Shown piece by piece: positions 52,741 through 54,850 of a DNA stretch of 64,000 nt (within the stretch, counting starts at the first letter, position 1; each line of letters starts with the position of its first letter). The notes beneath the pieces were generated by a model that was given only the letters and a program-made list of their open reading frames with translations, made no database searches and was not told the DNA's origin. The stretch is taken from the sequence record PQ850626.1. The stretch is one strand, 5' to 3'. Both the position numbers and the translations under genes were made by a program. The stretch is from Escherichia phage SkaterBoy_Bas90.

Positions 52741-54771
52741 TTAACCTCTATTCAATGAACATTTAGGAGAATTACAATAAACTTGATTCATAGAACCAAG
52801 CGTACAACTTTCAGCATCGCGCCACGGAATCTGCTTAAAACACTCTGAGCAGTATCCGAGGGTTGACCACATGGCTTTGGTGAAGTCAGTGCTTCGGTTT
52901 CCGTCGAAGCTGACAACAGTTTTGCGGAGAGCTGTTCGTGATTCAGGAAACACACCTGCTTTCTCAGCAGGTTCCTCCTTTTTTGGCTTAGTTGAGATTG
53001 CAAAAATACTGTTGCTACGTTTCTCAACATAAGCATCAACAACATCCTCCAGAGTGATGCCTGTCTGTTTCGCTGAGGAAGGTAATACAGTCATACGACC
53101 GATCATATCTTCAGTTACACGTAAAGCGAATTCAGGACGACGGGCGTTTGTTGTATCTGTTGCTCTAATCCAGACATAACCATCTTTGATCGTAGCATTA
53201 GACACTTTCTTCTTTACTTCTACAGCGCAGACTTTACAGATATCTTCACCACGAAGACGACTAAGTTCATCATCGAACTCATTCTCTGTTTTAACTTCAC
53301 CGCAGATTTCACAAACACCAATAGGAGTTTCCTCCTCTTCTTCCTCTTTAGGTTTAGTCAAACCTTCCAGACATTCAGGATGCCAATAGCACTGATATGC
53401 GAAGACTGCTTTAGGTGCATCCTTCCAATCAATGTGCTTATCACAACCACCACAATCACCATGAGAGTGCGCTTCCCAGAATTTACGAGTGATAGTAACG
53501 CCATTCTTGTTGACGAAACTATCATTCATATCAAAAGGGATATCATCATCGAAGTCAGCAGTAGTTGACTCAGGCTCCTTTTTCTCCAGAGATGGGTCAA
53601 CAAAACGACCTGCTGTGATCACTAAACGAACCATAGCATTGACTTCGGAGATGCAGGATACTGTCCCACGGTAAACAATTTTAGGGTCTTTCAGGGCATC
53701 CTGATAAGCCTTAATGTCTACGTTATGAACATCACCTTCGATATACTCTTGAGATTTCTCATCGTAGATATAACCAATCATCTTACCACGAGAAGGAACA
53801 GCACCGGCAGTTGCATAAGGAACAAACTCATGCGGAGTGATTTCCACAGTCATATCGCGGCGAATATCAATGTTTCGATCGCTTGCGATTTTGTTTTGAC
53901 TTACCACTGCGTTTCTTCGACGAACGTCTGCCGCTGTCACACCCGGCTTCGTGTCGTAAGGATTGCTTGTACTGCTTTTTGAGGAACTTTGATAGTTGCT
54001 TTGGCTGTAATTGTTCGAGTAGTAATTGCCCCAACGATTGACTACCGTAAAAACCGGAAGCTCGTGGGCGACCTCTTCAACCAGTGTCATGCTGTTATTA
54101 GACATGTCAAAGATATACTCTGTACCAACTTTACACTCAAAATGCTCATCAATACGGTTCTTGTGAGACTTCGAACGCTTCAGAATCCACATCAGCATAT
54201 CTTCTTCAGAAGCGCCAAACCAATCTCTGTTACAACGTGCGAGATGGAAAGGACGCTCTTCGTTACGAATGATATGAAGGCGGTTATCAGAAGCATCATG
54301 CCAGATTAAGGTGAAAGCACCATCCAGCTTTTGAATAGTCTCTGCTGCACCAATAGTGTTAATAGAGTGGCAGATGTTCTCACTATCTACCTCGAAGTTT
54401 TTACTGTCAGGTAACAGGTCTTGGTCCATCAAGGTTCCATTATGAACCAGAGTGATGTTACCATGTTGGAAAGGATGGGCGTTCTTGGCGTTAACTGCAC
54501 CTTTCGTTGCATGACGGCTGTGACCAACAATCCATGAAGGTGCTACAGTGTAAGCTGTTTCACCAGTGGTGTGCTTCTTGTACTCATCTTGTAGGATGAA
54601 TGCGAAAGAAGGAAGAGCTTCTTTATAAGTGAAGACTTCCTTAGTGCTTTTACGCTGACCGAAGATACCAGAGGAGTGTTGTCCTCGGAATACTCCAGCA
54701 TAAAAGAGTTGGTTGAATACGTCTAAATCAGTGCTTGACAGATTACCGCCAGCTAATACGATGCCACAAAT
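52741..54771 (-). CDS. class-II (Ntn) glutamine amidotransferase domain fused to C-terminal zinc-ribbon-rich domain; apparent AUU start
   Basis: track ORF 52741-54432 extends in frame upstream to 54771: '(I)CGIVLAGG', 'SWIVGHSRHATKGA', 'NAHPF', 'VHNGTL', 'DSENICH', 'GAFTLIWHD' = GATase-II; stop TAG at 54775-54777; SD AGGTGG 8 nt before ATT. Confidence 0.6.
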   Translation of the reverse strand: MCGIVLAGGNLSSTDLDVFNQLFYAGVFRGQHSSGIFGQRKSTKEVFTYKEALPSFAFILQDEYKKHTTGETAYTVAPSWIVGHSRHATKGAVNAKNAHPFQHGNITLVHNGTLMDQDLLPDSKNFEVDSENICHSINTIGAAETIQKLDGAFTLIWHDASDNRLHIIRNEERPFHLARCNRDWFGASEEDMLMWILKRSKSHKNRIDEHFECKVGTEYIFDMSNNSMTLVEEVAHELPVFTVVNRWGNYYSNNYSQSNYQSSSKSSTSNPYDTKPGVTAADVRRRNAVVSQNKIASDRNIDIRRDMTVEITPHEFVPYATAGAVPSRGKMIGYIYDEKSQEYIEGDVHNVDIKAYQDALKDPKIVYRGTVSCISEVNAMVRLVITAGRFVDPSLEKKEPESTTADFDDDIPFDMNDSFVNKNGVTITRKFWEAHSHGDCGGCDKHIDWKDAPKAVFAYQCYWHPECLEGLTKPKEEEEEETPIGVCEICGEVKTENEFDDELSRLRGEDICKVCAVEVKKKVSNATIKDGYVWIRATDTTNARRPEFALRVTEDMIGRMTVLPSSAKQTGITLEDVVDAYVEKRSNSIFAISTKPKKEEPAEKAGVFPESRTALRKTVVSFDGNRSTDFTKAMWSTLGYCSECFKQIPWRDAESCTLGSMNQVYCNSPKCSLNRG

Positions 54772-54850
54772 TTTCTAATCCACCTGAAGGGTAAACCCTT
54801 TCATCTAATTAACCTTTAAATTGTGCCCCTTTGTCAGAGGCACCCATTGA

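Follow-up and report, generated by a model that had tools for sequence, protein, structure and literature searches.

The glutamine amidotransferase gene of Escherichia phage SkaterBoy_Bas90 (sequence record PQ850626.1) is, with high probability, translated from an AUU codon that stands directly before the codon of its catalytic cysteine. The window, the 64,000-nucleotide stretch of DNA that was analysed, derives from a phiEco32-like Kuravirus (Gordonclarkvirinae) sharing 97–99.5% identity with many isolates, and the window features given below are all encoded on the minus strand. The full coding sequence (CDS) of the enzyme, a homologue of phiEco32 phi32_83, spans 52741..54771 (676 codons plus stop), with the proposed initiation codon ATT at 54769..54771 and the cysteine codon TGT at 54766..54768. 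The best explanation, rated as likely when taken whole, is that the gene is translated from AUU 54771-54769 within a fixed translation-initiation module. This module consists of a stem-loop, a Shine-Dalgarno sequence (SD; AGGNGG), an A/U-rich 8-nt spacer (AUUAGAAA) containing an in-frame UAG, and AUU.

The ATT start itself is not new, being already present in the phiEco32 reference annotation: both the GenBank and the RefSeq records start phi32_83 at the same ATT (54493..56523). What appears to be new is the module as a conserved portable unit, always combined with AUU in this enzyme family, with a tie to homing endonucleases that is statistical and, for two natural pairs, physical; a literature search found no paper describing the AUU module or its homing-endonuclease link. 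Here an AUU start at an infC-like junction is conserved in nature in a gene that does not belong to the translation apparatus, and its recurrence in one gene family makes the system tractable for studying why a weak start codon is selected. Should the endonuclease link prove causal, it would mean that mobile elements are able to rewrite start codons in neighbouring genes.

The start codon and the catalytic cysteine

On the basis of homology the product is assigned to the class II (N-terminal nucleophile, Ntn) glutamine amidotransferases, and glutamine hydrolysis is predicted from its domain content. Its Ntn domain is N-terminal and is joined through a low-complexity linker to a C-terminal part rich in Cys; Pfam GATase_6 matches residues 76-176 (55 bits, cut-off 27; E=1.1e-14) and GATase_7 also scores above threshold (27.4 bits, cut-off 25). 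A PDB search with the single amidotransferase sequence gave no match, but a profile (A1) built from 15 divergent homologues succeeded, retrieving GlmS (E=2.4e-16) and PurF (E=1e-11). C2-G3 is invariant among these homologues, as are R29-G30 and N111-G112, which align with the RG and NG of GlmS and represent the putative glutaminase-site Arg and oxyanion Asn-Gly; D129 is also invariant, its alignment to GlmS Asp123 not being clean.

Class II amidotransferases require Cys as residue 1, so that the initiator codon has to precede the Cys codon directly. In the profile alignment the Cys falls on Cys1 of mature Escherichia coli GlmS (1xff, E=2.4e-16) and the ATT position on Met1 (4amv), which would place the catalytic Cys immediately after the initiator Met and make it residue 1 once Met is removed. 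Moreover, 58 of 71 homologous viral loci have ATG directly before TGT/TGC GG at the position equivalent to ATT, and Grimontviridae phage homologues likewise show ATG TGT/TGC GG there. The phage enzyme thus shares with E. coli GlmS and PurF a homologous domain and a Met-Cys start with the catalytic Cys as residue 1; unlike it, those proteins use AUG, and the phage protein has a different, uncharacterised C-terminal region and is encoded in an amidoligase/ATP-grasp cluster.

The minus-strand frame reads TAG (54807-05), ATG (54804-02), AAA GGG TTT ACC CTT CAG GTG GAT, TAG (54777-75), AAA (54774-72), ATT (54771-69), TGT (54768-66), GGC ATC, and is open from ATT down to the stop at 52741-43. An in-frame stop lies two codons ahead of ATT and leaves no other plausible initiator. 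The original prediction had placed initiation at this AUU, right before the catalytic Cys, a proposal borne out by the GlmS alignment, the ATG of the homologues, the coding evolution and the conservation of ATT; its positions for TAG, ATT and TGT agree with the sequence, as does its SD AGGTGG 8 nt before ATT (54785-54780). It had counted a single codon between TAG and Cys where there are two, AAA and ATT, a correction that leaves the argument unchanged because AAA is no known start codon, and it had overlooked the in-frame ATG at 54804-54802.

The first in-frame ATG, GTG or TTG is TTG 54432, 113 codons downstream of ATT, and most deposited annotations start at this TTG ATG (54427..54432), giving a product without the catalytic Cys and without half of the Ntn domain. 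If the protein truly began at TTG/ATG 54432/54429, the upstream Ntn-like sequence would be untranslated. This start is the one picked by automatic gene callers, and it would agree with proteomics of a phage SU10 preparation, in which the protein was detected (9 peptides, 23.7% coverage) by matching against a truncated model of 63.8 kDa (PMC4281155), the size such a start would give. However, the 113 upstream codons carry the catalytic Cys and Arg and are under protein-level constraint. Between genera, third-position differences number 53-62 against 13-22 at positions 1 and 2, and codon changes are 38-45 synonymous against 22-26 non-synonymous; because changes are mostly third-position and synonymous ones exceed non-synonymous ones, the codons ahead of the first canonical start appear to be translated. 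In addition, no SD precedes TTG/ATG, and the GATase_6 match (residues 76-176) indicates that such a product would start partway through the domain. A downstream start is considered very improbable. Initiation at ATT predicts the N-terminal peptide CGIVLAGGNLSSTDLDVFNQLFYAGVFR, with or without Met.

Gene callers that ignore ATT truncate the amidotransferase gene. Among 60 sampled leader-bearing records, 8 annotate a CDS over ATT and the rest start at codon 11 or codon 114-115: Suseptimavirus genomes (ECBP2, IME267, SU7) are annotated from ATG at codon 11 and many Kuravirus genomes from ATG 54429, and in both cases the catalytic Cys is lost. A similar truncation removes the first residues of the amidotransferase in the annotation of Melvirus PQ867847, and the RefSeq start of gene 14 in phage Ro45lw, another gene with an ATT start, lies 8 codons too late.

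The leader, its conservation and its possible mode of action

In the window the module begins with the stem-loop AAGGG-TTTA-CCCTT (54787..54800), which ends 1 nt before the SD AGGTGG (54780..54785; AGGAGG or AGGCGG in other lineages). Then follows the 8-nt spacer ATTAGAAA (54772..54779), which includes the in-frame TAG (54775-54777) and is identical in all module-bearing loci. The 22-mer AGGTGGATTAGAAAATTTGTGG (54764..54785) is kept as AGGNGG... ahead of very divergent amidotransferases. An upstream open reading frame (uORF) of 9 codons, ATG..TAG (54775..54804, MKGFTLQVD*), is in frame with the amidotransferase and ends 3 nt before ATT; AAAGG (54813-54817) lies 8 nt upstream of its ATG. The uORF is retained in Aeromonas phage BUCT695 as MKGLTLQAD*.

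ATT is found in all of the about 20 related sequences that were read (phiEco32, KBNP1711, ECBP2, SU7, IME267, and IMG/VR and metagenome contigs), and it is conserved across three coliphage genera and beyond. The 66-nt leader (54757-54822) matches at 100% in all listed records of the class with at least 99% identity (68 records), and 28 further records show 95-99% leader identity, with one mismatch; in total, 96 independent Escherichia/Shigella phage records have at most one mismatch across the 66 nt (BLAST). Between genera, positions -52..+8 of the leader are identical at 57-58 of 60 sites, compared with 71-76% for adjoining coding DNA, and if these sites changed at third-position rates, 58 of them would stay unchanged with a probability of about 2e-18. 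Such conservation is not expected of neutral sequence, and in coliphages the module is now probably under strong purifying selection. Taken together with the alignment to GlmS, this comparative evidence supports AUU as a functional start of the infC type.

These observations also bear on the notion that ATT is really an ATG misread in sequencing or assembly, or marks a decaying pseudogene. Nothing speaks for it beyond the rarity of ATT starts; the codon is present in every related sequence read, 96 records hold at most one mismatch per 66 nt, and the open reading frame (ORF) is intact and constrained, leaving this explanation a negligible probability. The original prediction had offered an error as its alternative, which the independent genomes refute. 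The comparison with homologues that it proposed gave ATT throughout the close relatives and ATG in most homologous phage genes.

Another route to an N-terminal Cys would be translation from the uORF ATG (54804) with readthrough of UAG, yielding a 12-residue propeptide that is removed autocatalytically as in Bacillus subtilis PurF. Propeptide processing is known for some Ntn amidotransferases and, in PurF, generates the N-terminal Cys within the same enzyme class; the uORF ATG is in frame, conserved and preceded at 8 nt by the weak SD-like AAAGG, and TAG is a rare stop in the window (1 of 43 long frames). Against this, the PurF mechanism requires a translated in-frame N-terminal extension, and here the stop at 54777-54775 stands two codons upstream of ATT; the only tRNA of the window is Arg-TCT, with no suppressor, and UAG is read as a stop in natural E. 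coli hosts. An in-frame ATG ahead of the TAG is missing from the Melvirus genome and from loci L041 and L042, readthrough in L030, L040 and L048 would fuse a whole endonuclease to the enzyme, and the homologues begin with Met-Cys, without a propeptide. Readthrough is therefore given little credence.

Under the preferred reading, initiation at AUU within the module, the initiator tRNA would read AUU at 54771-54769, Met would be removed and Cys would become residue 1. Initiation at this weak codon would be driven by the strong SD (AGGUGG) and subject to proofreading by initiation factor 3 (IF3), which may limit expression, with possible help from termination-reinitiation by ribosomes finishing the 9-codon uORF at UAG. 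Sequence comparison establishes where the start lies, that it is conserved, and how the module is built and distributed; a reduced or IF3-dependent efficiency and coupling of the uORF to the gene are inferred. At the E. coli thrS-infC junction (K-12 sequence) the geometry of the phage junction is found base for base: GGAGGA occupies -13..-8, the in-frame stop -6..-4, and a gap of 3 nt leads to AUU. In both systems the stop of an upstream ORF lies 3 nt before AUU and the SD lies inside that ORF, which is thrS in E. coli, the 9-codon uORF here and whole endonuclease genes in related loci. In contrast, IF3 autoregulation is the purpose of the infC arrangement and no link connects the phage amidotransferase to IF3; furthermore, the phage module has a stem-loop abutting the SD and the fixed spacer AUUAGAAA, and is portable between genes and phages.

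Reporter assays on the infC context put the output from AUU at roughly a quarter of that from AUG, with reinitiation and de novo initiation having about equal shares (PMC3592434). This work supports, without proving, a weak and possibly coupled start in the phage gene. In E. coli pcnB, according to a secondary account, an AUU start limits expression (Binns & Masters 2002, as cited in PMC3592434). The phage gene resembles pcnB in encoding an enzyme with an AUU start and differs from it in that the two have no common leader. A link of pcnB translation to an upstream stop, in the manner of thrS-infC, is not known.

Several observations weigh against this interpretation or parts of it. Initiation at AUU is inefficient, but SU10 proteomics detected the protein without difficulty, so that low expression is not evident, and the SU10 peptides were matched to the truncated model. 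The coliphage leader is 100% identical, which makes constraint at the RNA level inseparable from constraint at the DNA level, and its predicted fold is not significantly more stable than those of shuffled sequences (z=-1.5). The uORF is missing from the Melvirus genome and several metagenomic lineages, and the Aeromonas version has no visible SD; coupling to the uORF is thus no general feature.

Other readings of the leader were examined and rejected. Frameshifting at the AAAAUUU run was discarded, as the run joins no upstream frame to the enzyme frame, and so was a group I intron carrying an endonuclease, as the kuravirus gap is only 79 nt long and there is no splice-compatible AUG. In an Rfam covariance search the leader reached at best 16.7 bits against a gathering threshold of 44 and 16.4 against 70; these sub-threshold matches, among them an astrovirus frameshift element (16 bits versus 70), are attributed to chance.

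Distribution of the module and association with homing endonucleases

The same leader with ATT occurs in Aeromonas phage BUCT695 and in a marine Melvirus. When metagenomes were scanned with the pattern AGGNGGATTAGAAANNNTGTGG, in which the start codon was left free, all amidotransferase-encoding matches (13/13) carried ATT; the other 7 matches had other triplets, open frames of at most 52 codons and no amidotransferase similarity. Module-bearing amidotransferases are only 30-45% identical to one another, those preceded by the exact 22-mer only 30-40%, and in the family tree each of them adjoins ATG-type relatives, resulting in a scattered distribution. Other lineages also place a stem-loop directly against the SD, built from at least six unrelated stem sequences. 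Stems of 5 bp or more are present in 10 of 13 ATT lineages versus 18 of 58 same-leader ATG controls (p=0.003), and SD-abutting stem-loops are enriched relative to ATG-type controls (p=5e-5).

A homology-based sample revealed that other leaders may also be combined with ATT (L063, L068, L093, L104) or ATC (L069). The amidotransferase family thereby includes about 6 ATT lineages and 1 ATC lineage versus 58 ATG loci, and non-AUG starts seem unusually frequent in it.

The leader followed by ATG is a common phage ribosome-binding site (RBS), with at least 120 matches, and is not specific for amidotransferases. In its AGGAGG form and with ATT it also starts T7-type gp14, for which the Pfam model begins at ATT, as well as a 322-aa protein encoded behind a NUMOD4-HNH gene and two virion proteins; no ATG relatives of these non-amidotransferase ATT genes were found among the same-leader ATG loci. 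Relative to ATG-type relatives (GAP52 and others), the kuravirus leader has 16 extra nt, which supply the 3' hairpin arm and a new SD, and an ATG to ATT change, and the module was probably gained by recombination rather than by point mutation. It was not found in 185,579 bacterial species genomes, save one mis-binned kuravirus contig. That contig (L132, CALKAR010000070.1), 8 kb of kuravirus DNA in a metagenome-assembled genome labelled 'uncultured Peptococcaceae', carries the amidoligase gene, the same leader and the amidotransferase start, and is probably a binning contaminant.

In L015, L030, L036, L040/L048, L041, L143 and L153 an endonuclease gene lies directly upstream of the module, and in the amidotransferase loci among them (L015, L030, L036, L040/L048, L041) this is an HNH-type homing endonuclease immediately upstream; the types represented are HNH_3, AP2-HNH, phrog_374 HNH, NUMOD4-HNH and Endonuclease_7. 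Upstream endonucleases accompany 7 of 13 ATT lineages and none of 61 same-leader ATG loci (Fisher p=1e-6), a comparison that rests on few lineages, some of them found through pattern search, and on ATG control loci that were screened only by phmmer with 7 queries and by inspection. These findings raise the possibility, tentative at best, that free-standing homing endonucleases from several families carry along the AUU module (stem-loop, AGGAGG, AUUAGAAA and AUU), which overwrites the native RBS and AUG of the downstream gene, so that ATT and leader would be the footprint of a mobile homing-endonuclease-gene cassette; AUU initiation as such is not in dispute. The overwritten genes would include those for the amidotransferase, T7-type gp14 and virion proteins. 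The change from AUG to AUU (G to T) would serve the selfish element, by protecting the site from cleavage or by making downstream expression dependent on translation of the endonuclease ORF, and kuraviruses would have lost the endonuclease and kept the module as a selected relic, with the 9-codon uORF as a surrogate.

Several junctions are in line with this scenario. In L030, L040, L048 and Ro45lw the endonuclease ORF terminates at the TAG of the module (..QED*/..KED*); in Ro45lw it is the Endonuclease VII gene that ends in ..KED*, ahead of an ATT-started T7-type gp14. The amidotransferase genes of L030 and L036 are 97-100% identical (30-nt windows) from about -16 on and have unrelated endonucleases upstream, pointing to a common insertion point. 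In a Melvirus pair, PQ867847 has a homing endonuclease gene and reads ..AGGAGGATTAGAAA ATT TGT, whereas PQ867846 has none and reads ..TAAGGATTGTT ATG TGC; the flanking sequences share 93-94% identity, and the two genomes become homologous again exactly at the start codon. A Kayfunavirus pair behaves alike at gene 14, where Ro45lw (Endonuclease VII, module and ATT) contrasts with RDN8.1 and Ro103C3lw (AAGGAGGACGT ATG) and homology again resumes at the start codon. Finally, module-bearing amidotransferases are patchy among ATG-type relatives.

Other facts speak against a cassette. Neither the window nor any Kuravirus-group record examined contains an endonuclease; in the window the upstream gene is the amidoligase, separated by a gap of 79 nt. 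The module is common to unrelated endonuclease families, which a single cassette leaves unexplained, and behind the homologous Endonuclease VII genes at the same gene 13/14 junction of phiYeO3-12 and Poynor the next gene starts with ATG and has a different leader. Conservation of the 22-mer exceeds that of the adjoining endonuclease genes, and the persistence of ATT under purifying selection where the endonuclease is absent indicates a function of its own.

A comparable strategy is known from phage T4, in which free-standing homing endonucleases (segG-gene 32 and others) embed expression signals of the downstream gene (PMC2988022). As in T4, the 3' end of the endonuclease ORF in the related loci holds signals for an essential downstream gene, favouring retention of the element. 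Unlike T4, where the signals are promoters or RNase E sites, the embedded signals are an SD, a spacer and a non-AUG start, and the window has no endonuclease.

Some further loci deserve mention. HNH_3-type endonucleases also lie directly upstream of the amidotransferase gene, with other leaders, in the IMG/VR contigs L069 (ATC start) and L110 (ATG); the 5' end of this gene therefore seems to be a recurrent site of endonuclease insertion. In Klebsiella phage Poynor (L279, 887-900), gene 14 is annotated from ATG ATT ATG TGT (MIMCW..); homologues begin with MCW, and the second ATG is probably the true start. In BUCT695 (L009), a 246-nt gap (705-950) separates the amidoligase gene from the ATT start and contains a 43-codon HTH_3 ORF (E=5e-7) ending 45 nt before ATT, which could be the remnant of an inserted element.

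Neighbouring genes and other features of the window

The amidotransferase gene belongs to a phiEco32-type minus-strand cluster with genes for an amidoligase (Amidoligase_2), a COOH-NH2 ligase and ATP-grasp proteins. The Amidoligase_2 gene immediately upstream (54851..55954), homologous to phi32_84, ends 79 nt before ATT. On the coding strand of the gap between the two genes, neither a sigma-70 promoter nor an intrinsic terminator was found. A hairpin past the amidoligase gene (GTGCCTCT-GACAA-AGGGGCAC, 54823..54843) has no U-run and is not called a terminator; its stem shows compensatory changes, being GTGCC/GGCAC in Kuravirus and Nieuwekanaalvirus and GCGC/GCGC in Suseptimavirus.

The published consensus of phiEco32 gp36 promoters is tAATGTAtA (PMC8948821), and it does not occur in the window leader. 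Leaders of ATG-type relatives and of the Aeromonas phage (L009, L010, L013, L014 and L026; alignment A2) have in common the motif TTTAAATGTAA, which lies some 25-45 nt ahead of the start and resembles this consensus; the counterpart in the window is TTTAAAGGTTAA.

The C-terminal two thirds of the amidotransferase (52741-54080) have no Pfam match. Within this part lie a low-complexity linker rich in S, N and Y (NYYSNNYSQSNYQSSSKSSTSNPYD), the acidic stretch KPKEEEEEE and several CxxC pairs (CGGC, CEICGE..CKVC, CSEC..CNSPKC) that resemble zinc ribbons. The choice of stop codon is strongly skewed in the window: of the open frames with 150 codons or more, 38 use TAA, 4 TGA and 1 TAG. The sole tRNA gene of the window, tRNA-Arg(TCT), is located at 63871-63946.

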